Source: Parcubacteria bacterium C7867-007
Lineage (GTDB): Bacteria; Patescibacteriota; Minisyncoccia; Phycocordibacterales; Phycocordibacteraceae
Direction of reading: 5' to 3'
Assembly (NCBI GenBank): GCA_001189195.1
Contig: LFCQ01000002.1
Location: 4,997 to 68,996 of the forward strand
DNA: 64,000 nt
The notes beneath the pieces were generated by a model. It saw only the letters and a list, made by a program, of their open reading frames with translations, ran no database searches and was not told the DNA's origin. Shown in pieces: positions 1,430 to 61,615 of this stretch. Numbering within the stretch: the first letter of the stretch is position 1; the number at the start of each line of letters is the position of its first letter. The translations under genes and the position numbers were made by a program.

Positions 1430-2026
1430 ATGACCTACGCCCCACGCACGTTTAATCTTCCAGACCTTAAAGGACTTTCAAAGAAGCAGATAGAGGTTCA
1501 CCTTGCTCTGTATGAAGGCTACGTAAAACATACGAACCTTATTATGGAGAAAATTGAAAAGCTCCGTGAGGAAGATGCTGAGGGTAACGCATATCTTATG
1601 GCTGAGTTGCGTCGTCGTCTTGGATTTGAGTTTGATGGCATGCGCATGCATGAATACTACTTTGAGCAGTTTGAAGGAGACATGACTTCACAAGATTCAA
1701 GTCACCCCCTAACCGAAGCAGTAACAGATCGATACGGTTCATGGGAAAAATTCATTGCCCACGTAAAGGAAGTGGCTGGCACGCGTGGTATCGGCTGGAC
1801 AGTCGTGTACTACGATCCCCGTGGCCGAGTTATTCATACCGCATGGGTGAATGATCATGAGCTTGGTCAACTCGCAGGACTTCCTATCCTTCTTGCGGTT
1901 GATATGTGGGAGCACGCATATATGGTTGACTATCTTCCTGCAGACAAGAAGTCATATGTCGAAGCATTTCTTGAGAACGTAAACTGGTGTGTGCCCGAGG
2001 GACGATTCCTTGATGCCGTAACCTAA
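1430..2026 (+). CDS. sodA: Fe/Mn superoxide dismutase
   Basis: N-terminal LPDL..KKQIEVHL and the C-terminal DMWEHAYMVDY metal-binding signature of Fe/Mn SOD. Confidence 0.9.
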   Translation: MTYAPRTFNLPDLKGLSKKQIEVHLALYEGYVKHTNLIMEKIEKLREEDAEGNAYLMAELRRRLGFEFDGMRMHEYYFEQFEGDMTSQDSSHPLTEAVTDRYGSWEKFIAHVKEVAGTRGIGWTVVYYDPRGRVIHTAWVNDHELGQLAGLPILLAVDMWEHAYMVDYLPADKKSYVEAFLENVNWCVPEGRFLDAVT

Positions 2027-3552
2027 TACGCCGTTGCATAAAGATGCCTCGCACGTTCATCGTGTGGGGTATTTTTCTTTTGTCTCCATACCCACCACCC
2101 CAATAATGCGTATATGGGGATTAACCACCATGCAGAGAACGCAGGAATGATGCTATTGGCAAATGGTACTGACGCACCTACCTGCGCTATGTGAATTACA
2201 TACGTAAGGAGAATGTATGCTGGAATTCCTGCAATTAGTGCAAGTATGGGCATGAATGACGATACTGCAAAAGAGCATACTGCAGCGAGTGCCGAGGCAG
2301 CCATTGCAGCGGGCAGGACGGGCATAGCAAGAAGGTTTGCAGGTATTGCAACAAAGGAGAGATTGCCACTTTGATACAGCAGGATGGGTAGCACAGCCGC
2401 TTGTGCAGCAAGAGTTGTTGAAAGCATTTCGTGCAGCGTTGCATTCTTAATCCACAGCAACCGAGCACCAATAGGAGTTGAACCTAGTATTAGTCCAAGT
2501 GTAGCCATAAAGGATAGTTGAAGTCCCGGATCAAATACCAACAATAGTGGATTGATCAATAGCATGAGTGTGAGTGCAAGAAATAGCGCACGCAGTACGT
2601 CATAGGGGCGGTACGTACCCCGCGCCAGCAACGCAATGAGTGCCATGATTCCTGCACGCACCGCTGCAGTTCCTGCACCTGCCGCAAGTACGAACAACGT
2701 GATAACTACCGCAGCAATAGTGAGTGCAATTCTTTTGCGCACTCTGTGCAGTACCGCGAGTACCCCTTCAGCGACAATCATTACGTTATATCCAGAAAGC
2801 ACGACAATCTGCAGCATGCCCGTTACTGTGAATGCATCAAGCAGTTCTTTTCCAAGACCCTGCTTCCCTCCTGCTAATATGCCAACCGCAAGTGCACTTT
2901 CTGGTTCCGGAATGGACTGACCTATGGCACGTACAAAACCATCTTTCACGTATTCGAGACTTCTAAGAAACGAAAGCCATATGCGTGTATCTCTACCCAC
3001 TATCTGTACGTCCGCAGGTGAAGCTGATCCAAATACTCCATCCTTCGCAAGAAACTGGTCGTACCGAAACACACGACCTCCATCACTATCAAACGGTTCT
3101 GGTGCCTTAATCGTTCCGGTAACACGGACCCTATCTCCAACGTGATAGGTGTCGCGCAGTGACGCACTCGCAATGATCCGTGTACGTTCGGTTCCCTTAG
3201 TTATCTCCACTGTTAAACGGTTACTGGATTCACGAATATCAGGCGGAGAAATAATTACTCCTTCGATAACAGATTTTGTATTGAGTACTGGTTGAAATGC
3301 CCGTGAGATTTGCGTGGACGCATAGTGGGTGCGAACACTCCCAACACTAAAAGCAACCAGCGCAACTGATACCACCAACACATAGCGCAGGTTCAGTTCT
3401 AAACTTTTTCTGAAGACTATTCCTTGTATTCCACAGAAGATTCCTAGCAATAAAATTCCTATACAAACAAGCAGCGGTACCCCGAGTATCAATGACAAAA
3501 AGACACCTAGAAGGAATCCGAAAACTGCCGCATAGAAGTAATATGCGTCCAT
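2023..3552 (-). CDS. comEC: ComEC/Rec2 competence membrane channel (DUF4131 plus competence domain) lacking the MBL domain
   Basis: About ten TM helices; central OB-fold-like soluble segment; the conserved competence-domain stretch QIVVLSGYNVMIV...GAGTAAVRAGIMA. Confidence 0.75.
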   Translation of the reverse strand: MDAYYFYAAVFGFLLGVFLSLILGVPLLVCIGILLLGIFCGIQGIVFRKSLELNLRYVLVVSVALVAFSVGSVRTHYASTQISRAFQPVLNTKSVIEGVIISPPDIRESSNRLTVEITKGTERTRIIASASLRDTYHVGDRVRVTGTIKAPEPFDSDGGRVFRYDQFLAKDGVFGSASPADVQIVGRDTRIWLSFLRSLEYVKDGFVRAIGQSIPEPESALAVGILAGGKQGLGKELLDAFTVTGMLQIVVLSGYNVMIVAEGVLAVLHRVRKRIALTIAAVVITLFVLAAGAGTAAVRAGIMALIALLARGTYRPYDVLRALFLALTLMLLINPLLLVFDPGLQLSFMATLGLILGSTPIGARLLWIKNATLHEMLSTTLAAQAAVLPILLYQSGNLSFVAIPANLLAMPVLPAAMAASALAAVCSFAVSSFMPILALIAGIPAYILLTYVIHIAQVGASVPFANSIIPAFSAWWLIPIYALLGWWVWRQKKNTPHDERARHLYATAY

Positions 3553-12676: not shown

Positions 12677-12711
12677 GATTTATACTTCTATTATTCATAA
12701 CCATCTTTTAT

Positions 12712-13062
12712 ATGTTAAAAGGACTCCGTTCAGTTATCTATCCCTCTTCAGATTTAGAAACAGACAAGAAGTTTTGGGAGGAAATCACCGGCAAGAAGGC
12801 TTATTTTGATGAACCCTTTTATGTTGGTTTTGATATAAATGGTTTTGAACTTGGCTTGCATCCTGGTGCAGCCGCAGAGGGTATCACCTATCCTGTTTCG
12901 TATTGGCGTGTTGATGACACAAAAGCCGCATCAGAGAAGATTCTTGCTTCAGGCGCTACGCTGCACACCAATCCTGCAGATGTCGGTGATGGTATAACCA
13001 TGACCACCTTCAAAGATAAGGCTGGGAATGTATTTGGAATTATCGAGCACGCATCAAAATAA
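12712..13062 (+). CDS. VOC/glyoxalase-family protein
   Basis: 116-aa paired beta-alpha-beta-beta-beta pattern ending ...GNVFGIIE, typical of the glyoxalase/bleomycin-resistance fold. Confidence 0.6.
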   Translation: MLKGLRSVIYPSSDLETDKKFWEEITGKKAYFDEPFYVGFDINGFELGLHPGAAAEGITYPVSYWRVDDTKAASEKILASGATLHTNPADVGDGITMTTFKDKAGNVFGIIEHASK

Positions 13063-13065
13063 TGG

Positions 13066-14145
13066 TCAGACGGTCTTTCTTGGGATACCTATATAGGTAA
13101 GGAGATCGTCATAGGAGAGACCTTCAACTCGTGCAACTTCTTCATTGAGGTATGCCATTGCTTCACCAAAGGGAGTATCTTGCTGATCTATATCTCCTTC
13201 AAAGTACCTGAACTCTTTACCAATCTCTGCCTTCAGGCTTTCAGGTTCAATACCATCGAGTTCGGCCTGAAAGCGTTCTTTACGCTTCTGCGCGAAGAAT
13301 GGCTGAAACGTTATGGTGCCAAGAAGTCTCTTTCTATACTCTTCTTCTCTACCATCGACGGTTCCCGTGCGAATTGCTTCAACAATGTCACTGTTATCTT
13401 CGATAGCAATCTGCCTACCACTCATCAGTAGCTTCTCAGGTCCATCCATCCCAAAGTCAGCAAGATCAGCCAGTGCAAGAAAACGAGTAGTGAGTGGTGT
13501 TTCTCTGGTGAGCAGCTTTTGAGTCACCCCTTCCTCTGCACTAAAACTTGGAATTGTTACGTTGATGTCTTCAATATCCTTATCAGGATCAATAGTGAAT
13601 ATAGGATCCTTCCCCGCTTTGATAAGAGCGTTGTTTGCAGCTTCCTTTACAACACTAATACGTGCTGCACTTCGTACTTCGCCTTCTCCAATCTTTCGCT
13701 TACGAATACCATCTGCTTCATAAAACACATGCTCAACATCATGTCCTCCTGCTGCAATAACCGCAGCCGCTTTCTCTGCAGCTGATATGCGACCAGGTTC
13801 AAACGCATTGGTGGCATCAATCAGTCGCTCAACTCGTGATGCTACCAATGCACTGTGTTCCCTATTATGAAATGCTAGTTTTACATCCTGATTCTCTGGA
13901 TTCCCATACTTGTTTTCCACAAGATCCAGAAGAATGTCTCGGCTAATCTCACCAACCTTCTCGATACGTGCGTCTCCTTCCAATCCTTCTAGCACTCCTC
14001 CGGCAAATGATTCCGTTATCTTTTCATCAATAGCTTTGGTGAGGGTTTCAATATCACGCTTCTGACGCATATCAGGGTCCTCCAAATACGAGGGTATTGG
14101 TTCCGCAGAACGGATAGGTTCTCTGCTGAGGAGTCGTTCAAACAT
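13066..14145 (-). CDS. hypothetical protein (possible HD-like phosphohydrolase)
   Basis: 359-aa acidic protein with HNREHSAL...GGHDVEH His/Asp motifs; no confident family assignment. Confidence 0.4.
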   Translation of the reverse strand: MFERLLSREPIRSAEPIPSYLEDPDMRQKRDIETLTKAIDEKITESFAGGVLEGLEGDARIEKVGEISRDILLDLVENKYGNPENQDVKLAFHNREHSALVASRVERLIDATNAFEPGRISAAEKAAAVIAAGGHDVEHVFYEADGIRKRKIGEGEVRSAARISVVKEAANNALIKAGKDPIFTIDPDKDIEDINVTIPSFSAEEGVTQKLLTRETPLTTRFLALADLADFGMDGPEKLLMSGRQIAIEDNSDIVEAIRTGTVDGREEEYRKRLLGTITFQPFFAQKRKERFQAELDGIEPESLKAEIGKEFRYFEGDIDQQDTPFGEAMAYLNEEVARVEGLSYDDLLTYIGIPRKTV

Positions 14146-14180
14146 GGCCTGATGGTATCACAATAGGATTCATAGGGTAT

Positions 14181-14210
14181 TGGCAGTCTGGGACGATGTT
14201 TGAACCTTTA
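14181..14210 (+). repeat. tRNA-3'-end-like direct repeat, type A (TGGCAGTCTGGGACGATGTTTGAACCTTTAT)
   Basis: Member of the 11-copy, same-orientation family; 36 bp upstream of the start of the 13066..14145 gene. Confidence 0.8.
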
Positions 14211-14216
14211 TATTAG

Positions 14217-14513
14217 TTACAACACAAAGAATGCTCCCAGAATTCCTAGAATGAGTGCCGTCAGGGAAATTAGATTTTGTCCTACTTTGCTCTTTACCAA
14301 AACCACGTCACCATTCTTAGATTTCATAGTCAGGCGCGGATTCATCGCTACAGATCCTAAGAAAACAAAGTACAGCACGTAACCAAACAAGAAGGGAAGT
14401 AACAGTCCAGAAGTCACGCTGTGCTTAATAAGAAAATAATACGGAAGTAATCCAACCCCAAAAATGATAAGTACCCAGCCTGCAATTTTATTCCACGAAT
14501 AGTTCGAATTCAT
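14217..14513 (-). CDS. small three-TM membrane protein (cassette gene)
   Basis: 98 aa with three hydrophobic helices; bracketed by repeats at 14181 and 14573. Confidence 0.45.
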   Translation of the reverse strand: MNSNYSWNKIAGWVLIIFGVGLLPYYFLIKHSVTSGLLLPFLFGYVLYFVFLGSVAMNPRLTMKSKNGDVVLVKSKVGQNLISLTALILGILGAFFVL

Positions 14514-14572
14514 ACCTGAAGTTAAGCACGTTCACTGGTCTTCAAAATTTAGAGGGTGGATAAATGAGTGCT

Positions 14573-14599
14573 GGCAGACTAGGGATCGAACCTAAATCT
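14573..14599 (+). repeat. tRNA-3'-end-like direct repeat, type B (TGGCAGACTAGGGATCGAACCTAAATCT)
   Basis: Minus-strand sense AGATTTAGGTTCGATCCCTAGTCTGCCA reads as T-stem, TTCGATC T-loop and acceptor 3' strand; overlaps the pilC stop codon; no matching 5' half anywhere, so it is a tRNA fragment. Confidence 0.8.
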
Positions 14600-15806
14600 C
14601 ACTCGAGAGCGAGTAGATTGGTGCGATCATGGCAAGTGCAAACACACCCACGAATGCACCAATGAAGAGCATGAGAATCGGTTCAATAATAGTAGAGAGG
14701 TCTTTGGTACGATCCTCAACGTCTACTTCATAGTACTCAGCAACCTGGCCGAGCATGTCTGACACCTTTCCAGTCTCCTCTCCCACTGCAATCATGTCGG
14801 TGAAAAGAATCGGGTAGAGCTTTGGGTATGAAAGGAATGTTGCAGAAAGAGGTTCACCTTTTTTAACACGATCAGATGCTTCTACGAGCACTCGACCAAA
14901 GATGTTATCACCCACCACCTCTGACGTGATTTGAATTGCAGAGAGCATTTCAACACCTGAGGAAAGTAGAGATGAAAGAGTACGTGCTGCACGTGCTGCC
15001 ATCGTCTCACGAGTGAGTTCACCAATCACTGGAATACGTAGTGCAATTGCGAGCAATAGAGCGCTTCCCACCTTGGTGCGTATGAATGACATAAAGCCAC
15101 CAATAACCACAATGAATCCAACAACCACAAGAATCACGTTGTTAACCACAAAATCAGACATATCAATGATGACTCGGGTTGCTAGGGGTAGCTCGCTGCC
15201 AAATGATTCGAAGGTACTGGCAAGGGTTGGCACCACAAACATGAGCATGAGTACACCAATAATAGCGATTGCAACAAGAATGATGGAGGGATAGATCATC
15301 GCTCCCTTAACTTTCTTGGTGAGTTGCTCGGAACGATCCATCTGACGTGCAACCACTTTCAACGAATCAGCCAACTTTCCAGACTCTTCACCTGCCTTGG
15401 TCATCGCAATGAACAGTGGAGAGAATACCTTAGGGAACTGCGCAAGACCTTCATGGAAGGAGAGCCCAGATTTCACTGATGTTTCAAGTGCTGTGGTGAC
15501 TTTCTGAAGATACTTGTTGTTTGATTGACGTTCAATAACAGAGAGTGCACGTGAAAGGGTGAGGCCTGCTGAAAGCATTGCTGAGAGATTCTTGGTGAAT
15601 GTAATGCGCTGTTCATTCTTGATGTGACCACCACCAAATTGAATATTTCCTAGTGAGGAGAGACCTCCTCCCTTTGCTTCTTCAACGGTAATAACACTCT
15701 CCCCTGCTTTCTCAATTTCCTCGTATACGGCAAATCGTGTCTGCGCTTCAATGATGCGCTTTGATTGCATCCCATCAGCCTGCTTAACAAGGACCTGAAA
15801 TTTCAT
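14592..15806 (-). CDS. pilC: type IV pilus assembly platform protein PilC (GspF family)
   Basis: Two GspF-type repeats, three TM segments, 404 aa, directly downstream of pilB. Confidence 0.85.
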   Translation of the reverse strand: MKFQVLVKQADGMQSKRIIEAQTRFAVYEEIEKAGESVITVEEAKGGGLSSLGNIQFGGGHIKNEQRITFTKNLSAMLSAGLTLSRALSVIERQSNNKYLQKVTTALETSVKSGLSFHEGLAQFPKVFSPLFIAMTKAGEESGKLADSLKVVARQMDRSEQLTKKVKGAMIYPSIILVAIAIIGVLMLMFVVPTLASTFESFGSELPLATRVIIDMSDFVVNNVILVVVGFIVVIGGFMSFIRTKVGSALLLAIALRIPVIGELTRETMAARAARTLSSLLSSGVEMLSAIQITSEVVGDNIFGRVLVEASDRVKKGEPLSATFLSYPKLYPILFTDMIAVGEETGKVSDMLGQVAEYYEVDVEDRTKDLSTIIEPILMLFIGAFVGVFALAMIAPIYSLSSEI

Positions 15807-22329: not shown

Positions 22330-23859
22330 ATGTCTATAAAATTAGTATTGATTCTGCTGGCTATTTCAGGCACTGCAGGTATCGCGCTTGGCTATGTGCT
22401 TCGCTTGCTCATTGCACTGGGCCGTCGTGGTTCCCTGGAACTTGAGGTGAAGCAGCGCATGCTCGAAGCAAAGGAGCGAGCGAACCGCATCATCGCAGAA
22501 GCAGAGGCACGTGGTGAGGAGATCGAGAAAGAAGCCACTGCTCCTCTTAAAGAACGTGAGGCGCGCGTGGAGTCGTATGTAAATCGCCTCACCAAGCGTG
22601 AGGAGTTTCTTGATGAACGTGAACAGAATCTTTCTGAACTCAGCGAGCAAGTGAAAATGCGTGAGAATGAAGCAGCTAACCTTAAGCGTGAGGCAGCAGC
22701 ACTTATCCAGAGTGAGCAAGCTGAACTTGCTCGTATTGCAGAGCTATCTGAAGAAGAAGCCCGTACTAAGCTACTGAGCAATATTGAGCAGCTTCATGAG
22801 AAAGCTATTCTCTCTCGTATCCAGAAGCTTGAGACTAATGGTCGTGAGCGCATAGAAGAAAAGGCACGCGGCATTCTCCTCACTGCTATTCATCGCATGG
22901 GTAACGCGGTAAATACCGAGGTTATGACCCTTTCAGTGCAGCTTCCTTCTGAGGAATTGAAGGGTAAGGTGATTGGTAAAGAAGGTCGCAACATCAAAGC
23001 CTTTGAACGCGCTACCGGTGTAGACGTCATTATTGATGAAGCACCTGATCGTATTAGTCTTTCTTCCTTTGATCCACTGCGTCGCCACATCGCAAAGATT
23101 GCTCTAGAGCGTCTCATTGAGGATGGCCGTATCCAACCCGCAAAGATTGAAGAGATTGTTGAGAAAGCAAAGCAAGAAGTTGAGGTAATCATTAAACAGA
23201 AGGGTGAAGAAGCAGCCTATGAAGTTGGTATTGTCGGACTTGATCCCCGTCTCATCACGCTTCTTGGTCGCCTCCACTTCCGTACCAGCTACGGACAGAA
23301 TGTATTGCAGCATTCTATTGAAATGGCCCACATTGCAGGCATACTGGCAGCAGAACTTGATGCAGACGCTGAAATTGCACGTACTGGTGCCCTCCTTCAT
23401 GACATCGGCAAGGCTGTAGATCATGAGGTACAAGGTACCCATGTAGAGATTGGGCGTCGTATCCTTGAGAAATTCGGTGTAGACAAGAAGGTTATTCAAG
23501 CGATGCAGGCACATCATGAGGAATATCCGTATGAAACACCTGAATCTATCATTGTTCAGGTTGCAGACAGTATCTCTGCAAGTCGTCCTGGAGCACGTCG
23601 TGACACTATAGAGCGCTATCTAGAGCGTCTTGGTGATCTAGAACGTATTGCAAAAGGCTTTGCGGGCGTTGAGAAAGTGTACGCAATACAGGCAGGACGT
23701 GAAATACGTATATTCGTGAACCCAGGAAAGGTATCAGACCTTGAAACACATAAGCTTGCACGTGAAATTGCTGCTCGTATTCAAGAAGAACTAAAATATC
23801 CAGGAGAAATTAAAGTGAATGTGATTCGTGAGAATAGAGTGGTTGAATTCGCACGCTAA
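22330..23859 (+). CDS. rny: ribonuclease Y
   Basis: N-terminal TM helix, coiled-coil, KH domain, HD domain (LLHDIGKA..H). Confidence 0.9.
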   Translation: MSIKLVLILLAISGTAGIALGYVLRLLIALGRRGSLELEVKQRMLEAKERANRIIAEAEARGEEIEKEATAPLKEREARVESYVNRLTKREEFLDEREQNLSELSEQVKMRENEAANLKREAAALIQSEQAELARIAELSEEEARTKLLSNIEQLHEKAILSRIQKLETNGRERIEEKARGILLTAIHRMGNAVNTEVMTLSVQLPSEELKGKVIGKEGRNIKAFERATGVDVIIDEAPDRISLSSFDPLRRHIAKIALERLIEDGRIQPAKIEEIVEKAKQEVEVIIKQKGEEAAYEVGIVGLDPRLITLLGRLHFRTSYGQNVLQHSIEMAHIAGILAAELDADAEIARTGALLHDIGKAVDHEVQGTHVEIGRRILEKFGVDKKVIQAMQAHHEEYPYETPESIIVQVADSISASRPGARRDTIERYLERLGDLERIAKGFAGVEKVYAIQAGREIRIFVNPGKVSDLETHKLAREIAARIQEELKYPGEIKVNVIRENRVVEFAR

Positions 23860-24236
23860 CGCTTTGATTTAATAGCTTTCTGAAGGGTGACATCGAGGGT
23901 GAGGAGTGTATATTCTTCGGCATGGGCAAGCAAAGCAAGATCAACAAATGAAAGCTTGCTTTTTTGTCCAAGAAATTCTTCTATAGTCCTAAGAAATGAT
24001 TCTTCTTTGCTGTGGAGTATCGTAAATGCTGCATTCCCAAGCATTATGCGCAAAAAAGAATCAGCATTCGCTTTCCCAGAGCGCATCATAAGTACCGTTG
24101 CAGTCTCTAGAACGACATACTCATGCACTACTAGCTGCTGTGTTTGCTTGAAGAGAAGCTCTTTGGCCTCTGTATGAAAGTGATCTGCTTCGTTAAAGAA
24201 AGCGATCAGTACACTCGAATCAACGAGTATTCCCAT
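23856..24236 (-). CDS. vapC: PIN-domain toxin (VapC-like)
   Basis: N-terminal DSSVLIA motif and acidic residues positioned as in the PIN fold; overlaps the upstream antitoxin gene by 17 bp. Confidence 0.75.
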   Translation of the reverse strand: MGILVDSSVLIAFFNEADHFHTEAKELLFKQTQQLVVHEYVVLETATVLMMRSGKANADSFLRIMLGNAAFTILHSKEESFLRTIEEFLGQKSKLSFVDLALLAHAEEYTLLTLDVTLQKAIKSKR

Positions 24237-24462
24237 ATACTATTTCGTCGATGCGATTAGAAAGGTCTTTATCACCTTTAAACTTAGCTGTTGCGAGTGC
24301 ATCTTCAAGAGTGCCTGTGCGTTTTGTTGGAAGTATAGGTTCTATGCGAAATACCGGTTTGGAATCACGCACTACCGTAAAGGACTGGCCCTTAAGCGCC
24401 GCATCTGCAATGCGTTTAAGGTTATTTTGAAGTTCCTTAATACCCAGTATGGCTGTTGTCAT
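24220..24462 (-). CDS. antitoxin (Phd/YefM or VapB-like)
   Basis: 80-aa protein immediately upstream of, and overlapping, the PIN toxin gene. Confidence 0.55.
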   Translation of the reverse strand: MTTAILGIKELQNNLKRIADAALKGQSFTVVRDSKPVFRIEPILPTKRTGTLEDALATAKFKGDKDLSNRIDEIVYGNTR

Positions 24463-24544: not shown

Positions 24545-25957
24545 TCATTTTCTATACTTTCCCCACAGACCTCCCTTGGAGGACTTAGCCCTAAAACCCC
24601 AATAGATTCGTATGAACAAGGCAGATATCGTGATGAAGGTGCAAGATGTGCTCGGCGGAACCAAAGCTGATGCAGAGCGCGCTGTAGAGACTGTTATCGA
24701 AAGCATCGTAGGCGGCCTCAAGGCTGGTGACGAAGTATCGATTGCAGGTCTCGGCATTTTCCGTGCAAAGCCTCGTGCTGCACGTATGGCACGTAACCCT
24801 CGCACAGGTGAGCAACTCTCTTCGTCATACATCTCATACCCCTTACCGTACTCAAGATCCTTCATAAGCTTCGTGGGGGCGTTACGAATATGCTTTGGTA
24901 CTGGCAGGTTACCCATCTTCTTTATATCTTCCTGTGCAGCACGTAACGCATCATATGCAGAACGGTCCTTCTTTGCTTGAGCAAGATACGCAACACCGTG
25001 CGCAAGATTAATAGCGCATTCTGGGTATCCAATCACCTCACACGCTCTAAACACCGCATTAGCCACCACCAACGCTGTTGGTTGCGCCACACCAATATCC
25101 TCTGAAGCAAAGATAACCATTCTTCGTGCAATAAACAGTGGATCCTCCCCTGCCTCAACCATGCGTGCCAAGTAATAGATGGCTGCGTCTGGTTGTGAGG
25201 CACGCATACTTTTTATGAACGCACTGATGGTGTCGTAGTGTTCATCTCCTTTCTTGTCATAGCGAAGGTGTGGAGACTCAAGAGCCTTATTGAGAGTCTC
25301 CACAGTTACCTTTCCATACAGACTCGTTGTGCTATCCAAAAGAGTAAGTGCACGGCGTGCATCCCCGTTGGCATATCCCATTAACCATTCAAATGCATCC
25401 TTACCTAGCTTTAGTTTTGCACGTGTAACTATTGCTCGTAGTGATTCTTCTGCGAGTGGTTCTAGTACAAACACTCTGCAACGCGAAAGAAGTGCGGGAA
25501 TAACTTCGAATGAAGGATTTTCTGTTGTTGCTCCAATAAGTGTGAGCCTTCCACTCTCTACATATGGAAGCAGAAAGTCTTGCTGGCTCTTATTAAATCG
25601 ATGAATCTCATCCAGGAACAATACTTTTGGACGTTCGGGTGCAAACGTATCGTTATTAAACGCTTCCTGAAAGGTACTCTTCCCTCCCCTACCCTTCGCT
25701 GGTCCCTCAACTATCTGACGAATATCCTCCTTCCCTGCAGAAACGGCTGAGAGCTCAAACAAATCTGCATCCAATGCTTTGGCATAGATACGCGCGATCG
25801 TCGTCTTACCAGTCCCTGGAGGGCCCCACAGAATGAATGAGAAGCGGTGTCTCTTCTCTGTCGCTACACGTATCGGCTTCCCTTCCCCTACCAAATGTTC
25901 CTGCCCTACGAATTCATCGAGGTTCTTGGGTCGTAGGCGTGCGGCAAGAGGTTCCAT
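24545..25957 (-). CDS. rarA: recombination factor RarA/MgsA (AAA+ ATPase); conserved homology stops near 24819 and the remaining 91 codons read antisense through the HU gene
   Basis: Walker A GPPGTGKTT, sensor motifs and MgsA_C start (...TKLMKDLEYGKGYEMYDEE), after which the sequence is non-homologous. Confidence 0.75.
   Translation of the reverse strand: MEPLAARLRPKNLDEFVGQEHLVGEGKPIRVATEKRHRFSFILWGPPGTGKTTIARIYAKALDADLFELSAVSAGKEDIRQIVEGPAKGRGGKSTFQEAFNNDTFAPERPKVLFLDEIHRFNKSQQDFLLPYVESGRLTLIGATTENPSFEVIPALLSRCRVFVLEPLAEESLRAIVTRAKLKLGKDAFEWLMGYANGDARRALTLLDSTTSLYGKVTVETLNKALESPHLRYDKKGDEHYDTISAFIKSMRASQPDAAIYYLARMVEAGEDPLFIARRMVIFASEDIGVAQPTALVVANAVFRACEVIGYPECAINLAHGVAYLAQAKKDRSAYDALRAAQEDIKKMGNLPVPKHIRNAPTKLMKDLEYGKGYEMYDEESCSPVRGLRAIRAARGFARKMPRPAIDTSSPALRPPTMLSITVSTARSASALVPPSTSCTFITISALFIRIYWGFRAKSSKGGLWGKYRK
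24612..24980 (+). CDS. hup: HU-family DNA-binding protein with aberrant C-terminus (homology ends at about residue 69, near 24818)
   Basis: MNKADIVMKVQDV...GLGIFRAKPRAARMARNPRTGEQL is canonical HU; the DNA-binding arm and C-terminal helix are replaced by unrelated sequence. Confidence 0.6.
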   Translation: MNKADIVMKVQDVLGGTKADAERAVETVIESIVGGLKAGDEVSIAGLGIFRAKPRAARMARNPRTGEQLSSSYISYPLPYSRSFISFVGALRICFGTGRLPIFFISSCAARNASYAERSFFA

Positions 25958-27932: not shown

Positions 27933-27967
27933 GTTGAGAAGTTGAAGCAGTATGTGACTATGCATAC

Positions 27968-27998
27968 TGCAAGTCTGGGACGATGTTGGGGCCTTTCT
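27968..27998 (+). repeat. tRNA-3'-end-like repeat, type A variant (TGCAAGTCTGGGACGATGTTGGGGCCTTTCT)
   Basis: 28/31 identical to the consensus; first boundary of the tRNA-Pro-proximal array. Confidence 0.75.
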
Positions 27999-28068
27999 CG
28001 TCAAATGGACATAGCTCACGAAAAGGTATACGAATATAAAGAGTACAGAAGAAACACGGAGTCGAAAC

Positions 28069-28557
28069 ATGTTTAAAAAGCTTGGGGTCGACATTGGTGG
28101 GGTTATCATCGCTGAGATCAAAGCTGAAGGCGGCCTTGCTCACATCGATGAAGATCATCTCAATGTACTGCCAGTACAGAGTGTGCTTGAGGCTCTCGCT
28201 CAACTCGAACACACATTTAAAGATCAGCGTTTTTTGATCTCAAAGGCACGGGAAGAAGTTGAGGGTAGCTGCCGGTCTTGGCTGCAGCACTACAAGTTCT
28301 TCGAGACGACAGGTATACCTGAAGCTCACCTGCACTTCTGCAGGGAGCGTTCGGGGAAGAAGGCCATCTGCAGAGAGTTGGGTATCACCCATTTCGTGGA
28401 TGATAAGCTCGAGGTACTCAGTCACCTTGTAGGCCTGGTTCCGAACCTTTTTCTCTTCAACCCTGACGAGAACGAGACACGGCCCTATGCTGAGTATCTT
28501 CCTTCCGTAACCGTTGTTCCTGATTGGCGTTCACTGACACAGCTCCTTCAAGAGTAG
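28069..28557 (+). CDS. hypothetical protein, HAD/5'(3')-deoxyribonucleotidase-like with a degenerate motif I (cassette gene)
   Basis: LGVDIGGVI where DxDGV is expected; C-terminal GITHFVDDKLEVL...LFLFNPDEN resembles NT5C-type HAD phosphatases. Confidence 0.4.
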   Translation: MFKKLGVDIGGVIIAEIKAEGGLAHIDEDHLNVLPVQSVLEALAQLEHTFKDQRFLISKAREEVEGSCRSWLQHYKFFETTGIPEAHLHFCRERSGKKAICRELGITHFVDDKLEVLSHLVGLVPNLFLFNPDENETRPYAEYLPSVTVVPDWRSLTQLLQE

Positions 28558-28560
28558 TAT

Positions 28561-28612
28561 CGCTTCGCTGGTGCTGGCATATTCCAGCACCAGCCACTGC
28601 CATACCTTTTTT
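28561..28612 (+). terminator. double hairpin terminator
   Basis: gctggtgctggcatattccagcaccagc stem, then ccatacctttttt / aggtatggctttttt. Confidence 0.5.
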
Positions 28613-28627
28613 AGGTATGGCTTTTTT

Positions 28628-28660
28628 GCTGGCAGTCTGGGACGATGTTGGAACCTTTCT
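28628..28660 (+). repeat. tRNA-3'-end-like repeat, type A consensus (GCTGGCAGTCTGGGACGATGTTGGAACCTTTCT)
   Basis: Perfect consensus copy, directly between a terminator and a promoter. Confidence 0.8.
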
Positions 28661-28666
28661 CTACAA

Positions 28667-28694
28667 TTGACAATGGTATTTATTTACGTATAAT
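28667..28694 (+). promoter_or_regulatory. sigma70-like promoter (TTGACA, 16 bp spacer, TATAAT)
   Basis: Exact consensus hexamers 7 bp downstream of the repeat; RBS AGGAGG follows. Confidence 0.5.
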
Positions 28695-28737
28695 AGTAAA
28701 TGGGTACTTTTGCCCCTTCATATTAGGAGGTCCTCCA

Positions 28738-29133
28738 GTGGAGACCGCAATCAATTGGAACCAAATGCCGTTCAGGGTTCAGGCTGAAATTAACATCGGC
28801 CTGTACAGCGTGGAGAACACGCAACCCTATTTCGCACGATTGACTGAGCGCCTACAGGCGATCATCGATTCGAGCGAACAGTGGCGTGATTCTGCCGAAA
28901 ACGGAAACGACTGGCACGTTTGCCGGCCCGAGGTGAGAGGGTTCGGCGCGCACTTTAAACTGCTTGTGCCCTTCTCCGAAATCAAGCCGAGCCAACTTCG
29001 AGCTTTGTGCTCGTACGTCAACAGACTCGCTGAACGACTGGCTGAAGAAAACGATCCGAACATTGATACGGTCTACGCTGAAGTCGCCTTCAGACCCTGC
29101 AGCACAATCTTTACTAGCGGAAGTAGCTTGTAG
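28738..29133 (+). CDS. hypothetical protein (cassette gene); GTG start preferred over the longer ATG ORF that begins at 28645
   Basis: AGGAGG lies 8 nt upstream of the GTG at 28738, whereas the ATG at 28645 falls inside the repeat; no family match. Confidence 0.4.
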   Translation: METAINWNQMPFRVQAEINIGLYSVENTQPYFARLTERLQAIIDSSEQWRDSAENGNDWHVCRPEVRGFGAHFKLLVPFSEIKPSQLRALCSYVNRLAERLAEENDPNIDTVYAEVAFRPCSTIFTSGSSL

Positions 29134-29191
29134 AGATTCCTTAATGCGCGCCCTGTCTTTGAAAAACAAGATGGGGCGCTTTCGATATCTG

Positions 29192-29224
29192 GCTGGCAGT
29201 CTGGGACGATGTTGGAACTTTTCT
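29192..29224 (+). repeat. tRNA-3'-end-like repeat, type A (GCTGGCAGTCTGGGACGATGTTGGAACTTTTCT)
   Basis: Near-perfect consensus copy. Confidence 0.8.
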
Positions 29225-29239
29225 AAGCTTAGAATAGAC

Positions 29240-29268
29240 TTGACTTTTATATATATTAATAGTATGGT
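29240..29268 (+). promoter_or_regulatory. sigma70-like promoter (TTGACT, 17 bp spacer, TATGGT)
   Basis: Hexamers with an AT-rich spacer downstream of the repeat and upstream of the 29301 ORF. Confidence 0.4.
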
Positions 29269-29300
29269 AGTTTCAGGTATTGAAACGTATGGGGTAAGAA

Positions 29301-29636
29301 ATGGATTTTGCGATTTTGGACGCCCTCGATGCTCTGAAGGAGCAGGAGAAAGCACGACTACGAGAAGAGCTGCCCAAAAGGCTGGCACACTCTCACTTCG
29401 TCTGGTGGCGCCGGATGCTTCATCTGGCCACCTTCTTCAATCACGACCGCATCGACTGCCGCATCCCACTTTGGGTCCGGCTAGTGCTTGGAAACGAAGA
29501 TGCGTTTCAAGCATACACTGATGCGCTTCAAGAAAGATTCGGCTCATCGTTTCAGGTCTATCTGGGACGTCCAATTGGATACCCCGAGGCCCGATACGAT
29601 CGCGTGTGTATCGAGTTTCAAGCCGCAGCCGCCTGA
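29301..29636 (+). CDS. hypothetical protein (cassette gene)
   Basis: 111-aa ORF with its own promoter-like element and a strong terminator. Confidence 0.45.
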   Translation: MDFAILDALDALKEQEKARLREELPKRLAHSHFVWWRRMLHLATFFNHDRIDCRIPLWVRLVLGNEDAFQAYTDALQERFGSSFQVYLGRPIGYPEARYDRVCIEFQAAAA

Positions 29637-29640
29637 AGAA

Positions 29641-29686
29641 GCCCGGAGGATAATTCCCCGCTGCTCCTCCGGGCGGCTTCTTTTTA
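29641..29686 (+). terminator. Rho-independent terminator
   Basis: gcccggagga...tcctccgggc 10-bp stem followed by ttcttttt. Confidence 0.6.
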
Positions 29687-29713
29687 TAAAAGTTCGATAC
29701 CTTTTGAAAGGGG

Positions 29714-29742
29714 TGGCAGACTAGGGATCGAACCTCAAATCT
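29714..29742 (+). repeat. tRNA-3'-end-like repeat, type B (TGGCAGACTAGGGATCGAACCTCAAATCT) fused 3 bp after the tRNA-Pro 3' end
   Basis: Identical to the 14573 copy except for one inserted C; minus-strand sense is a T-arm plus acceptor fragment of a tRNA different from tRNA-Pro. Confidence 0.8.
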
Positions 29743-29745
29743 TTG

Positions 29746-29816
29746 TCGGGGTGCGGGGAATTGAACCCCGTCTAACTGGTCCCAAACCAGTCGTACTACC
29801 GGTATACGACACCCCG
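29746..29816 (-). tRNA. tRNA-Pro (anticodon GGG)
   Basis: 71 nt: acceptor CGGGGTG/CACCCCG, anticodon loop UUGGGAC, T-loop GGTTCAATTCC. Confidence 0.85.
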
Positions 29817-30095
29817 TATGAACGGAAGGATTTCCACACATCCTACGTAGATGCATCCTACCAGATTTTAAATTTTAGCCCACCCGTGCCAAGTATCGAG
29901 TATTTGCACCATCAACACTCTATTAACATCGGTTCCCTCTTTCCGGTGTCCTTACGTGAAGAATTCTTCATATTCAAGACCTTGAATAGTACAGCCTAAA
30001 CATTGATTATTTCTTAAAGTATCTATAAAGAAGCTCTCCAGACACTGTCCTTTATCCCCACTGTCCCCTACGTTGTCCACAGTTATCAACAAATC

Positions 30096-30121
30096 AAAAA
30101 GACGGCCGTAACCGTCTTTTT
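30096..30121. terminator. perfect hairpin aaaaagacggccgtaaccgtcttttt, bidirectional terminator candidate
   Basis: 8-bp GC stem flanked by an A-run and a T-run, ending 10 bp before the tRNA-Gly 3' end. Confidence 0.45.
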
Positions 30122-30131
30122 GATTATTTCT

Positions 30132-33352: not shown

Positions 33353-34117
33353 TTAGACAGTTATCGAAAGAGGGCAGTGGTCTGAGCCGTAAACAGTACT
33401 GTGAATCTCAGCTTTCTTCACATTCTTAATGAACTCCTTGGACACAAAAAAGTAATCAATACGCCATCCTACGTTCCGTTCACGTGCACGAGTGAGAGTA
33501 TCCCAGTATGTATATGCCTCAGCTTGCTGTGGGTGAAAGTGTCTAAAGGTATCTATATATCCTGCCTCAATAACCTCATCAAGCCACTTACGTTCAATTT
33601 CAAGAAAACCCGTTGTTTTCTCATTTTCCTTTGGCCGAGCCAGGTCAATAGGGAAGTGTGCAGTGTTTACATCCCCACAGAACACAACGGGCTTGGTTTT
33701 CCGTAACTCCTCACAGAATGCAAGAAATGCCTCGTAGTACCGTAATTTAAAGTCCAAGCGCTCTGGCCCTCGTCCTCCATTGGGGAAGTAGATGTTTAGG
33801 AGCCAGAAATCATCATATTCTGCGCCAATTAATCGGCCCTCATCATCAAATTCCTTTATTCCCATACCATATATGACGGAGAGTGGCTCAATACGTGAGT
33901 ATATTGCTACGCCGCTATAGCCCTTCTTTATCTTGCAGGGGGAAAAGAATGCCGAAAAACCCCCTAGATTTAACATGTCCTCTGGTAACTGATCTGGTTC
34001 TGCTTTGATCTCCTGGAAGCAGAATATATCTGGCTTAGTTCCTTTTAAAAAAGCTTCCCAGTAGCCGTTGCGGTGAACTGCACGCAACCCATTTACGTTC
34101 CAGGAGACAATCTTCAT
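33353..34117 (-). CDS. xth: exodeoxyribonuclease III
   Basis: MKIVSWNVNGLRA N-terminus; DxN/E, GDxN and SDH catalytic motifs. Confidence 0.9.
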   Translation of the reverse strand: MKIVSWNVNGLRAVHRNGYWEAFLKGTKPDIFCFQEIKAEPDQLPEDMLNLGGFSAFFSPCKIKKGYSGVAIYSRIEPLSVIYGMGIKEFDDEGRLIGAEYDDFWLLNIYFPNGGRGPERLDFKLRYYEAFLAFCEELRKTKPVVFCGDVNTAHFPIDLARPKENEKTTGFLEIERKWLDEVIEAGYIDTFRHFHPQQAEAYTYWDTLTRARERNVGWRIDYFFVSKEFIKNVKKAEIHSTVYGSDHCPLSITV

Positions 34118-34189
34118 TGCGAGTATTGTACGCTACCTCAACATAAAACTGCACCATCTTTTAGCAGTTATCAGCTATACTCTGTGTAC

Positions 34190-36487
34190 ATGGCCGAGCA
34201 AGAGCTACTAAACTTAATTGCCGTTCGAAGAGCAAGTGGTGTTAATGATACCGACATACGCACGGAGCTAACCTCAAGAGGTTGGGCTGCTCAAGATATA
34301 AATGGAGCACTTGCAATTCATACGATGCAAACATCAGGACATAAGTTTGCAGGTACTAGTTCATACGCAGTAGTGAGGACTGGTGTTCCTTCAAAAGGAG
34401 GTGTTTCCTTCTTTCATCTATTCGTACTCTTTATATTAATAATTTCTGCACCAGGTGCTTATGGGTTAGTTACCCAACTAATTGTTCCCGCAGCGAAAGG
34501 TCAACCGGTTGCGGTAAAGGATTCACTAAAAGGGTATGAACTTCTCCGTGATGTTCCATCTTTGATTCCTGTAGACACATCAGGCATTCTTCCGTCAGCC
34601 AAAAGAGATGTTTCTCCTACAGTTGCAGTTGCGCCAAAAACAACTTCAAGTAGCAACTCTGGTGGTTCAACAAACACACCCGCTCCTGCAAGTACTCCCA
34701 CAGAATCCATTGCTTCGACTGCCGATAAAGGGGTGCCTGTTATAAAGTTCAATTCAACTAGTAGAAATGTATATGCGGGTCGTTTTGTAACATTTGATTG
34801 GAGTGCATCAAACGCTGATTCTTGTACTGCAGAAGGATTTGGTACCGACGGAAAAACAGAAGGGTCAGCACGTGTACGTATTAATGTCGGAGGAATATAC
34901 CGAGTTACGTGTACCGGAAAGGGAGGTAGCGCTAGCAAGATAATTACCATTACATTGCGTACCGATGTGCCGCCCGTACCAGTTGAACCTGCACCGACAC
35001 CCACTCCAACGCCCACTCCAACGCCCACTCCAACGCCCACTCCAACGCCTACTCCAACACCTCAGCCAACACCCACCCCGACTCCAACCCCAACACCGAC
35101 TCCAACACCGACTCCTCCTTCACCCCCATCACCTCCACCTGTTCTTAATCCATCCCCGCCAGGCTCGTATCCTGTCTATTCAGGGTGTCCAGCGCCATCT
35201 TCTTCGTATTCTCGTGTTGTGTACGTTGATCCTGTGAATGGTCTAGACACTGGTGATGGTTCACTAGCAAGACCATACAAGAGTCTCTCGAACTCGTTCG
35301 GTGCAGGTCTCATACGACCAGGTGACCATGTTGTTGCGATGGCTGGTAATCACGGATCGCTTCAACTACTTGGTGGCTTCGGTTCAGGAACGTGGACATG
35401 GTTAGACTTCCAGCCAGGCTCTCTAATGAGCGGCACAAACATAAACAACATTCGCAATCTATTGATTACGAAAATGACCGTTAATAATCCTACAACCGGC
35501 ACAGCCGCAATGGTCTACTTCGCCGGAGGTTCTAATCTTGTTATCGCTGACAGTCTTATCTACGGGGGTACTACACGTGACTCATCAGGCTGGAGCGCAA
35601 CCACTTGGAAGAATGTCAAAAGCGGTGCACAGTTAGACGGACTCAGTTGTGTTTCGTTCCTGCGCAACACCATTACCAATGTTCGTTCAGGTCTTGGAAC
35701 CACTGGAAACAGTGTTAAAGGATTGATTCAGGATAATCGTGTTAAGAACTTTTCTGCAGATGGTATTGATCCCAACGGTTCAGATATCATCGTGTACAAC
35801 AACTCAATCATTGATGAATATGTTGACCAGTCTGAAGGTGACCCAAACCACGATGATGGTATACAAACCTTCACGTCACCAGGAAGACCGTTCAGGAACG
35901 TTGTGATTGACCACAACTGGGTTCAGGAGACCACTGATCCAAGTCGACCGCTCATTGGTGGCATGCAGGGTATTTCATCTTTCGATGGTGCGGGTATGAG
36001 TAACATTCGTATCACGAACAACGTAGTTATCACCTCAGTGTGGCATGGTATGTCATGGTATGGGATAACAAACAGCGTCATCGATCGTAATACGGTTGTG
36101 AACTACTCAGGTAATGGTCGTAACACGTGGCTAATGCTTAATACCGGCAAAGAAGGTGAGGATGCGATCAACAATACGGTTTCTAATAACGTTGCAGTTG
36201 ATATGGTGCTCATTGAAAATGACGGTAACTCATTCACAAATAATATAAAGGTTTCTAATCCATCTGCTGCATTTACTGCATTCAATCCAGCAAGTAACAC
36301 GTATGATCTTTCGCCTAAGGCGGGCGGTATACTTAGCGGAACAGGTGCAGGTGCGACCCTTACTCGCGTTAGTCAGGTGGCATATGCAGAAGCACCGGTA
36401 TATCCTGGTCAACCCCGCACTCAGTTAGCCTCTGTGTTCGCTGCATTCGAATCCTTCCTCAACTGGCTTCAAAATATCTTTAGGTAG
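34190..36487 (+). CDS. large surface protein with TM anchor, PT-repeat linker and right-handed parallel beta-helix domain
   Basis: TM helix near residue 80; (PT)n linker; repeated N/G/T/V-rich about 22-aa units characteristic of pectin-lyase-fold beta-helix; start moved to MAEQELL to avoid overlap with the divergent xth. Confidence 0.55.
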   Translation: MAEQELLNLIAVRRASGVNDTDIRTELTSRGWAAQDINGALAIHTMQTSGHKFAGTSSYAVVRTGVPSKGGVSFFHLFVLFILIISAPGAYGLVTQLIVPAAKGQPVAVKDSLKGYELLRDVPSLIPVDTSGILPSAKRDVSPTVAVAPKTTSSSNSGGSTNTPAPASTPTESIASTADKGVPVIKFNSTSRNVYAGRFVTFDWSASNADSCTAEGFGTDGKTEGSARVRINVGGIYRVTCTGKGGSASKIITITLRTDVPPVPVEPAPTPTPTPTPTPTPTPTPTPTPTPQPTPTPTPTPTPTPTPTPPSPPSPPPVLNPSPPGSYPVYSGCPAPSSSYSRVVYVDPVNGLDTGDGSLARPYKSLSNSFGAGLIRPGDHVVAMAGNHGSLQLLGGFGSGTWTWLDFQPGSLMSGTNINNIRNLLITKMTVNNPTTGTAAMVYFAGGSNLVIADSLIYGGTTRDSSGWSATTWKNVKSGAQLDGLSCVSFLRNTITNVRSGLGTTGNSVKGLIQDNRVKNFSADGIDPNGSDIIVYNNSIIDEYVDQSEGDPNHDDGIQTFTSPGRPFRNVVIDHNWVQETTDPSRPLIGGMQGISSFDGAGMSNIRITNNVVITSVWHGMSWYGITNSVIDRNTVVNYSGNGRNTWLMLNTGKEGEDAINNTVSNNVAVDMVLIENDGNSFTNNIKVSNPSAAFTAFNPASNTYDLSPKAGGILSGTGAGATLTRVSQVAYAEAPVYPGQPRTQLASVFAAFESFLNWLQNIFR
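34988..35140 (+). repeat. in-frame tandem ACnCCn repeats encoding the PTPTPT linker
   Basis: Direct 6-bp repeats of acgccc/acaccg encoding about 50 residues of alternating Pro-Thr. Confidence 0.8.
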
Positions 36488-37411
36488 TTAGTTTTGGCGA
36501 CGAGAATGAAACTTCTTGTGGACCTCACGTAAGTGCGCATCAGTAACGTGAGTGTAGATCTGAGTTGTGGTGATGGATGCATGACCAAGCATCTGCTGTA
36601 CAGAGCGAATATCAGCACCATTGTTCAGAAGATCCGTAGCGAATGAGTGACGCATCACGTGAGGCGTCACTTTCTTTGTAATGCCGGCTTTAGCGGCATA
36701 GATTTTAATCATGCGCTCAACCGATCGGGGGGTGAGACGTGTGGGCACACGTTTAGACGTCTTCTCAGGATCCTTGCTTGGCATGGGCGGAATATTCACA
36801 AAAAGTGCCTCATCCATGTCTTTTCGTGCTTTAAGATACGCTCGAACGGCTGTTTTTGCTTCATCAGAAAGGAATACCACACGAACTTTTTCTCCTTTAC
36901 CTCTAATAGGGAAGTCATCTCTACTTAGATCGAGATCAGTATTGAGGGAACAAAGCTCTGAAACACGAAGTCCTGTTGAGAAGAGAAGTTCGAGTATGGC
37001 CTTGTCTCTGAGGGACTTCTCATCGGTTCCGACTGCTGAAGCAAGTAAACGATTGAGTTCGGTCGGGGAAATAAGGTCCAAGTGGCGTTCTGGTACCTTT
37101 GCAAGCTCAATTCGCTCAGGAGAAAGGCCATCCATACCTCGTTTTCGAAGGAATTTAAGGAATGCTCGTAGAGCAATGAGGTAATAATTCTGGGTACGGC
37201 GCTTCATGGTGCCAGAAACACCCTGTTGGCGGTTTAGCCAGAGCCGAAATTCACGTACCTTTTCCTCCGTTATGTCAGAAACCTCTTTAATAGCCATTTG
37301 ATCAAAGAAACGGCTTAGGTAGTGGTCGTAGTTCTCAATAGTCTTCACTGCACGACCACGCTCAATCTCAGTGTGCTCTAAAAACTGCCGTTTCCAGTCC
37401 TCAATATTCAT
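36488..37411 (-). CDS. tyrosine site-specific recombinase, XerC/XerD family
   Basis: SAM-like N-domain; catalytic R..HxxR..Y context (HVMRHSFAT, LGHASITTTQIYTHV). Confidence 0.85.
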   Translation of the reverse strand: MNIEDWKRQFLEHTEIERGRAVKTIENYDHYLSRFFDQMAIKEVSDITEEKVREFRLWLNRQQGVSGTMKRRTQNYYLIALRAFLKFLRKRGMDGLSPERIELAKVPERHLDLISPTELNRLLASAVGTDEKSLRDKAILELLFSTGLRVSELCSLNTDLDLSRDDFPIRGKGEKVRVVFLSDEAKTAVRAYLKARKDMDEALFVNIPPMPSKDPEKTSKRVPTRLTPRSVERMIKIYAAKAGITKKVTPHVMRHSFATDLLNNGADIRSVQQMLGHASITTTQIYTHVTDAHLREVHKKFHSRRQN

Positions 37412-61176: not shown

Positions 61177-61196
61177 GTAATAAAGATACCACTACT

Positions 61197-61229
61197 ACTG
61201 GCAGACTGAATTGAAGTTGGAACCTTTCT
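61197..61229 (+). repeat. tRNA-3'-end-like repeat, type A variant (CTGGCAGACTGAATTGAAGTTGGAACCTTTCT)
   Basis: Both ends conserved, central part diverged. Confidence 0.7.
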
Positions 61230-61275
61230 GCAACATGTGGTAGTTTTCGTCCAGAATCGGTAATCGGAGGCTATT

Positions 61276-61611: not shown

Positions 61612-61615
61612 TGTT

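Follow-up and report, generated by a model that had tools for sequence, protein, structure and literature searches.

tRNA-Gln-like stubs and rows of single-gene cassettes in the genome of Parcubacteria bacterium C7867-007

The genome of Parcubacteria bacterium C7867-007 carries, behind a tRNA-Pro gene, a short stub that by its sequence is a copy of the 3′ third of tRNA-Gln(UUG). We consider it somewhat more probable than not that an inserted row of single-gene cassettes has this stub (M1) as its proximal end-site, the whole being an array derived from a tRNA-Gln attachment site and served in trans by a site-specific recombinase. The analysis covered a window of 64,000 nucleotides of contig LFCQ01000002.1, to which all window coordinates below refer. 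[quoted passage not shown]

CPR/Patescibacteria have very small genomes, and the gain and loss of accessory genes in them is poorly understood. Three arrays lie in the 64 kb analysed here, and both sites are also present in Paceibacterota and Saccharibacteria. If these are true recombination sites, they would mark compact hot spots of gene exchange that could be catalogued over thousands of genomes by two short motifs, and two well-defined DNA sites would then be available for a search for the recombinase that acts on them. In annotation, stubs of this kind should be treated neither as pseudo-tRNAs nor as classical island borders.

The stub behind tRNA-Pro

Positions 29746-29816 of the minus strand hold a genuine tRNA-Pro gene with no encoded CCA, predicted by ARAGORN and matched by the Rfam tRNA model (RF00005) with 57.6 bits over all 71 model positions (1-71), which bears out the complete tRNA-Pro reported earlier. 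Its anticodon is UGG, because the loop reads U-U-UGG-G-A; the GGG given previously came from a reading shifted by one base. A promoter-like site, TTGGCA-16-TAAAAT, is located 5′ of the gene (29865-29892, minus strand; 10 of 12 positions in a consensus scan), in a region kept in two outgroup contigs (L058 and L059).

The order 3′ of tRNA-Pro is CAAAGATTTG, then AGGTTCGATCCCTAGTCTGCCA, then CCCC. The 22-nt AGGTTCGATCCCTAGTCTGCCA (M1-A; 29714-29735, minus strand) corresponds exactly to positions 51-72 of the tRNA-Gln(UUG) gene of metagenome contig L008, a complete gene (ARAGORN) whose 3′ end (...CTAGGTTCGATCCCTAGTCTGCCAGCA) is the stub without a single difference and reads CTAGG-TTCGATC-CCTAG-TCTGCCA-G, followed by CAA. 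By this identity over positions 51-72, the stub corresponds to the final third of a gene for tRNA-Gln. The derivation from a tRNA had been recognised in the preliminary description, with the T-loop TTCGATC and the acceptor 3′ strand TCTGCCA in the right register (an acceptor of the U1-A72 type). The stub was also real where it had been placed, 3 bp after tRNA-Pro, except that its tRNA-identical part begins 10 nt past the discriminator; the AGATTTG at the stub is non-tRNA sequence, and the T-stem of M1-A has a G.A mismatch.

ARAGORN finds tRNA-Pro alone in the stub region. A permissive search, expected to return one full tRNA and a sub-threshold partial one, returned the full tRNA only: Rfam cmscan gave no tRNA match to the stub (29695-29744) even at E ≤ 10, including a run that permitted a 5′-truncated match. 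The stub thus does not score as a T-arm plus acceptor in the covariance model, the outcome named in the preliminary description as one that would refute its reading. For 22-33 nt this test is underpowered, and the identity to tRNA-Gln is the stronger evidence.

M1-A sits in the 3′ trailer of tRNA-Pro, between that gene and a strong terminator-like hairpin (29627-29678). The hairpin stands between the tRNA-Pro/M1 transcript and a convergent cassette gene and is conserved in the sister genome C7867-008 (L045); the fold of 29625-29750 has z = -3.66 against shuffled sequence, and a terminator-like scan match falls at 29660-29677. As far as tRNA-Pro is concerned, M1 would be just a part of the 3′ trailer that needs trimming. 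The preliminary description had suggested that the fragment, as a second T-arm-like hairpin, could influence RNase Z processing of tRNA-Pro; the hairpin formed by the stub itself is as stable as shuffled sequence (z = 0.04).

M1 copies tRNA-Gln starting with the last two T-stem bases (G52-G53), includes the T-loop and everything up to the 3′ end, and adds 2-4 flanking bases. In size and position it roughly matches a minimal tRNA attachment site. In L008 the direct repeat GATCCCTAGTCTGCCAGC lies 185 nt downstream of the real tRNA-Gln gene, as expected for an att duplication, and because of this repeat the tRNA-Gln 3′ end looks like a genuine attachment sequence. No complete tRNA-Gln(UUG) other than the L008 gene (599-670) was recovered. 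The acceptor stem of this gene contains a C3-C70 mismatch (5′ TGCCAGA against 3′ TCTGCCA), which could mean that its 3′ part has been swapped for an incoming element's copy. Other identities for the stub, namely a tmRNA end, a split-tRNA half, and a minihelix with GCCA, were weighed on the sequence and set aside: the acceptor misfits tmRNA, the AGA upstream is unconserved at other loci, and several copies occur, none with a partner half.

Three arrays in the window and their counterparts elsewhere

M1 occurs elsewhere in the window. M1-B, TAGGTTCGATCCCTAGTCTGCCAGCA (14569-14594, minus strand), has 26 nt identical to the L008 gene, made up of the 3′ end of tRNA-Gln and two flanking nucleotides. 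The TAG within it terminates pilC (14592-15806; Pfam T2SSF); the PilC C-terminus SSEI (SSxI pattern) is the native one. A degenerate M1-like site with 4 mismatches, AAGTTCGATCGCTAGTCTTTCAGC (62405-62428, minus strand), heads the third array. When up to 3 mismatches are allowed, the window contains two matches to the M1 23-mer, whereas 100 shuffles predict 0.00. The stub, described as a tRNA-adjacent footprint, is not an isolated one: the same stub lies on the stop codons of pilC and, in other genomes, of other genes. Nor do the window copies at 14.6 kb and 29.7 kb bound an island, since the 15 kb between them holds housekeeping genes (NusA, pyrophosphatase, ClpP, RNase Y, RarA, and PilB/C).

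D3 is a 33-nt repeat family, TTGCTGGCAGTCTGGGACGATGTTGGAACCTTT, with seven copies in the window, all on the plus strand (repeat search); a profile search (nhmmer) of the window recovered exactly these seven and none further. On the tRNA-sense strand D3 reads AAAGGTTCCAACATCGTCCCAGACTGCCAGCAA, and GGTTC and the 16-nt core CCYAGWCTGCCAGCAA are common to it and M1. All seven copies fall in three arrays, each headed at its high-coordinate end by an equally oriented M1 or M1-like site: array A (27965-29735), array B (14178-14594), and array C (61195-62428, with the degenerate M1). Successive sites enclose one small gene in either orientation, and the arrays are rows of one to three single-gene cassettes, 300-650 bp long and often provided with their own promoter and terminator. 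D3 decay follows no consistent gradient with distance from M1.

In array A, M1-A is joined to a right flank, R1 (CCCCTTTCAAAAGGTATCGAACTTTTAT; 29686-29713, minus strand), which in the sister genome is joined to D3 and not to M1, as seen in a three-way alignment and in a BLAST match of window 29725..29682 to L045 14141..14183. The first cassette gene (A1; 29301-29636, plus strand, 111 aa) has a promoter-like site at 29240-29268 and is bounded by the D3 copy TGGCTGGCAGTCTGGGACGATGTTGGAACTTTT (29190-29222, plus strand; nhmmer E = 2.8e-10). The second gene (A2; 28645-29133, plus strand) encodes at most 162 aa, as its true start may be later, and directly upstream of it the promoter-like TTGACA-16-TATAAT at 28667-28694 matches 12 of 12 positions in the promoter scan. 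Next comes a D3 that matches the consensus perfectly (28626-28658, plus strand) and is preceded by a terminator-like hairpin (28599-28621), then the third gene (A3; 28069-28557, plus strand, 162 aa), and finally the distal, partly degenerate D3 (27965-27996, plus strand), 33 nt from the stop of a trypsin-like protease gene. Each gene of array A has a promoter-like site just past D3, and one is followed by a terminator-like hairpin before the next D3. Neither A1 nor A2 has a Pfam or NCBIfam match; A3 has 113 homologues, in CPR contigs and Micromonospora, and one source calls a homologue 'Nucleotidase'. In the four other contigs checked, A3 homologues lack flanking D3, M1, or other repeat arrays.

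Array B contains a single gene (14217-14513, minus strand, 98 aa), encoding a hydrophobic, probably membrane, protein with no family match, and is closed by a D3 at 14178-14209 (plus strand; repeat and profile search). Array C consists of three small genes, at 62047-62349 (minus), 61648-61938 (minus), and 61276-61551 (plus), split by D3 sites at 61972-62004, 61612-61643, and 61195-61227 (all plus strand; repeat and profile search).

D3 was also considered as a sigma-54 or ECF promoter; the spacing misfits and the cassette genes run in both orientations, with sigma-70-like promoters standing just downstream of D3. A coding role was rejected as well: the viral matches to its 20-mer lie inside a high-GC gene, CPR variants of D3 have stops in that frame, and D3 itself is free of coding constraint. 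The matches in question are to GTCTGGGACGATGTTGGAAC, the 20-mer in the D3 core at window 28633-28655, which is identical to a coding stretch for VWDDVGTF in 33 high-GC IMG/VR contigs (L012-L044); the match runs 3 bases further in almost every one of these contigs, and the stretch lies just upstream of GYPCQPFS in a gene resembling a C5 DNA methyltransferase. Unusual as it is, this 23-nt identity is probably due to chance.

At the orthologous tRNA-Pro locus, the sister genome C7867-008 aligns with the window at ~80% DNA identity over a stretch that begins at the CCA-adding enzyme gene and takes in tRNA-Pro, M1, and the hairpin; past the hairpin the D3 sites alone match until the trypsin-like protease gene. 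Its array has five clear D3 copies and one degenerate copy, with one gene between each pair, and none of these genes is related to the three of the window. A third lineage (L047-L049) has tRNA-Pro, an M1 variant of tRNA-Gln type (GGTTCGATCTTTGGCGTGCCAGCC), one cassette, and a diverged D3. In the outgroups L058 and L059, which share the synteny, tRNA-Pro is followed by a flank of ~60 nt (CTTCATAC...ATG) and the next gene, and neither M1 nor D3 is present at the locus. The site is accordingly polymorphic: occupied in the window, L045, and L047, and empty in L058 and L059.

Alignment of L047 with L058 places the block from M1 variant to D3 variant exactly between CAAAT and CTTCATAC, which implies that M1 is inserted DNA and not a pre-existing chromosomal site; no target-site duplication is visible at the L047 junctions against L058. 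Since the outgroups lack M1 and D3 and the sister genome has different cassettes, M1, the cassettes, and the distal D3 must have entered as an insert whose cassettes turn over. The comparison shows a joint insertion of all three, a few bases past tRNA-Pro, in an ancestor of this genome, and a complete replacement of cassette content between the sister genomes since then. The earlier proposal of an integrative-element footprint therefore stands in one respect, the stub having come with inserted DNA (L058 and L059 have the same tRNA-Pro and downstream flank without it), and lacks support in another: the inserted DNA is not a classical island with an integrase of its own, and neither end has a full tRNA-Gln.

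The pilC locus gives a comparable picture: the window has an intact M1, L050 and L052 have a decayed one, and L053 has none. L052 and L058 belong to one genome, in which the pilC site is occupied while the tRNA-Pro site is empty. The region between pilC and a CarboxypepD_reg gene (window 12677-14177) differs in gene content in each of L050, L052, and L053, beyond the M1-D3 bounds, so the variable region exceeds the recognisable array.

Two further differences between the window and its relatives were found near tRNA-Pro. The relatives have a UPF0102 gene between tRNA-Gly(GCC) and tRNA-Pro (L047 11312-11713, L058 6577-6972, and L059 8319-8714), in the place of which the window has ~315 nt with no long ORF (29817-30131); the conserved end GGTGGGCTAAAAT and the promoter-like region are kept, and the window probably lost the gene by deletion. 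In relatives, moreover, a second Exo_endo_phos gene separates the tRNA-Pro site from the protease gene (L045 14618-15394, L047 12517-13302, and L058 7162-7938); window 27933-27964 is without it, and array A reaches straight to the protease gene.

Elsewhere, the exact M1 21-mer was found in 11 outside contigs, six from genomes and five from metagenomes, two pairs of which look like near-duplicates; the six are species-representative genomes, Paceibacterota, Parcubacteria and Saccharibacteria MAGs. Only in L008 does it lie within a tRNA gene. The other 10 copies all lie outside any tRNA, and each is accompanied, at a distance of 350-900 bp, by one to three D3 sites that keep the same orientation relative to it; a full tRNA-Gln is absent beside these 10 copies as it is beside the window arrays. 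M1 usually lies right behind a gene transcribed towards it (in about 10 of 13 cases a co-oriented gene ends just before it), and the stop codon of that gene is often provided by M1. The preceding genes include dnaN, a UDG-family gene, a zincin-like peptidase, and an ABC-2 permease (Pfam), together with an AlaRS-like gene named by eye. Cassette cargo is diverse and accessory, comprising nucleotidase-like, CutA1, NUDIX, AAA_33 kinase, His_Phos_1 phosphatase, and methyltransferase genes and several without a family match; no identical cassette is shared between arrays (tblastx, 20 array regions). The same layout is present in independent assemblies from NCBI, JGI, ENA, and Logan. Taken across these genomes, the comparison shows one architecture seeded behind the stop codons or terminators of many unrelated genes in CPR bacteria. 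Scans of viral contigs for M1, the M1 variant, and degenerate D3 patterns yielded no M1 and no true D3, and a phage origin was set aside, as the scans gave nothing relevant.

Several other features of the window were noted. An 804-aa beta-helix protein (34073-36487) has a Pro/Thr-rich linker encoded by a 12-nt tandem repeat of ~10 units (34982-35125). ComEC appears in the form of two ORFs, one with Competence and DUF4131 domains (2023-3552) and the other a stand-alone MBL-fold protein matching the ComEC C-terminus (88-954), and other genes stand between them. Two overlapping small minus-strand ORFs (126 and 80 aa; 23856-24462) have a toxin-antitoxin-like arrangement. The RarA/MgsA ORF (24545-25957, minus strand) is ~80 aa longer than those of relatives; in the region 24545-24980 its extension overlaps a convergent plus-strand ORF, at a position where relatives annotate a Bac_DNA_binding gene, and the true RarA stop is probably earlier than the ORF end.

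Recombination signs and alternative explanations

M1-A is a mosaic when set against the sister genome: its left half and the hairpin correspond to site 1 of the L045 array, and its 28-nt right flank to the last clear D3 of that array, a pattern that shows flanks swapped between M1 and D3 sites. M1 and the L047 variant have GGTTCGATC in common and differ at almost every later base, in surrounding DNA that is ~84% identical. The point at which the sequences begin to differ conflicts between the two comparisons, falling in the T-loop by M1 and its variant and at CTGCCA by the mosaic flank.

Under the explanation we favour, a site-specific recombinase supplied in trans would recognise the sites; it may be an unlinked integrase that targets tRNA-Gln or a chromosomal Xer-type enzyme. 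Strand exchange would occur at or near CTGCCAGC, and circular cassettes carrying one D3 each would join or leave at existing sites; no circular cassette or excision junction was seen. A single recombinase was seen in those parts of the window that were annotated, a Xer-type tyrosine recombinase (36488-37411, minus strand; Pfam Phage_integrase and SAM_1, NCBIfam XerD/XerC/XerA-like), ~6.7 kb from array A. Its gene is syntenic in relatives whether their tRNA-Pro site is occupied or empty, and the protein scores 137.5 bits on the integron-integrase model, against a cutoff of 265. Pfam and NCBIfam identify no integrase among the array genes of the window, and a tblastn search with the Xer protein around 11 other arrays gave no match within 8 kb. 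The Xer-type enzyme is no more than a candidate for the one acting in trans.

Several observations weigh against the cassette model. Among them are the lack of any circular cassette, excision junction, or cassette shared between arrays, the conflicting points of difference, and the inconsistent decay of D3. In addition, a simple attB x attP reaction does not account for all of the data, as the empty sites are without M1 and both ends of the insert look complete; no recombinase is linked to the arrays; homologues of the A3 gene occur elsewhere without D3 and M1; and the position of M1 behind co-oriented gene ends could reflect a role in RNA. The last point leads to the reading of M1 and same-strand D3 as RNA signals of 3′-UTRs or trailers, acting in tRNA-like processing, stabilisation, or termination, with the nearby genes being ordinary variable genes. 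M1 does mostly follow directly on a gene reading towards it, often giving the TAG stop, D3 lies 3-41 nt past the stops of sense-oriented cassette genes, and a hairpin often stands 3′ of M1. We nonetheless judge this decidedly unlikely. The D3 strands fold no better than shuffled sequence (z = +1.35 and +1.26), the hairpin of the stub itself has no extra stability (z = 0.04), and Rfam gives no match; half of the window sites lie upstream of antisense genes, and the motifs come and go with the cassettes as one inserted block. The lack of structure beyond that of shuffles, together with cassette genes that run both ways, points to a role at the level of DNA.

Another reading takes M1 as the attR or attL left by one integrase-carrying tRNA-site element that has since decayed. 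M1 came with inserted DNA, the tRNA-Gln 3′ end acts att-like at the real gene of L008, and islands formed by repeated integration at tRNA sites are known to hold scattered partial tRNAs (bioRxiv 10.1101/2020.12.28.424599). This explanation is unlikely, although less so than the RNA signals, because neither end has a full tRNA-Gln, the arrays contain no integrase or remnant of one, the internal repeats are a distinct conserved 33-mer and not tRNA copies, the units are single genes of 300-650 bp, and the two-site architecture recurs at many loci in two CPR groups. The clustering of tRNA genes in the region (Arg, Gly, Pro, Gly) could suggest a tRNA-Pro/tRNA-Gln tandem in which the first two thirds of tRNA-Gln were deleted; syntenic outgroups have no tRNA-Gln after tRNA-Pro, these empty orthologous sites largely refute the idea, and an identically cut fragment follows pilC, dnaN, the UDG-family gene, the AlaRS-like gene (by eye), and others, which makes such decay very improbable. 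Chance resemblance or an assembly artefact would agree with a stub left unscored by the Rfam tRNA model; it is refuted by the comparison with shuffled sequence, the exact identity to tRNA-Gln, and the recurrence of the layout in independent assemblies, and its probability is negligible.

A bolder form of the cassette model is possible though doubtful: the arrays may belong to an undescribed integron-like capture system of CPR bacteria, with a 25-nt tRNA-Gln mimic as dock, a 33-nt cassette site, and a recombinase in trans, possibly of Xer type, seeded precisely at the stops or terminators of essential genes, to which it would bring its own stop codon. With three arrays in 64 kb, it would serve as a main route of gene flux in these very small genomes. 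No description of the M1 and D3 motifs was found in the searchable literature.

Comparison with known systems

Integrons combine attI with attC sites that are conserved in structure and bear GTTRRRY and RYYYAAC boxes, and the IntI gene adjoins the array. The arrays described here resemble them in having a stable proximal site, a variable row of compact single genes, and a site that starts at or just after a stop codon, and in that sister genomes keep the anchor and not the cassettes. Unlike integrons, they have no adjoining IntI; D3 is conserved in sequence and forms no hairpin, the GTTRRRY and RYYYAAC boxes do not fit it (by eye), and the cassettes lie in both orientations and often have their own promoters.

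The pdif modules of Acinetobacter plasmids are units of one or two genes bounded by ~30 bp sites of 11-6-11 layout, which alternate, and they have no dedicated recombinase. Small modules and bounding sites of ~30 bp are common to both systems, and the one tyrosine recombinase observed here is a chromosomal enzyme of Xer type. In contrast to pdif, all sites here are direct repeats; read by eye, D3 and M1 show neither an 11-6-11 layout nor inverted 11-bp arms around a 6-8-bp centre. M1 and D3 ends, as direct repeats, also have no terminal inverted repeats of the kind that would mark an IS or MITE.

SCC elements of staphylococci are large, use ccr serine recombinases, and have their site within the rlmH coding sequence. 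Tandem units at the 3′ end of a housekeeping gene, with short direct repeats over the stop-codon region, are a feature of both; the site here differs in being imported, tRNA-derived, and placed behind many different genes.

In the tycheposon islands of Prochlorococcus, the tRNA 3′ end is the att site and repeated integration pushes older units inward; the cargo is niche-related or accessory, the genomes are streamlined and have few classical mobile elements, and the islands have full tRNA anchors, tyrosine or serine recombinases with replication genes, and units of several kb (bioRxiv 10.1101/2020.12.28.424599). The arrays described here differ in their anchor, a 22-26-nt fragment placed after unrelated genes, and in the distinct 33-mer inside, the single-gene units, and the absence of a linked recombinase. 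With no linked integrase, attC hairpin, dif-like symmetry (by eye), or full tRNA anchor, they appear to miss defining features of tycheposon islands, integrons, pdif modules, and SCC elements alike. They share with the tycheposon islands an att sequence derived from a tRNA 3′ end and accessory cargo, and such tRNA-anchored islands, with their partial tRNAs, are the closest described analogue in the literature read.
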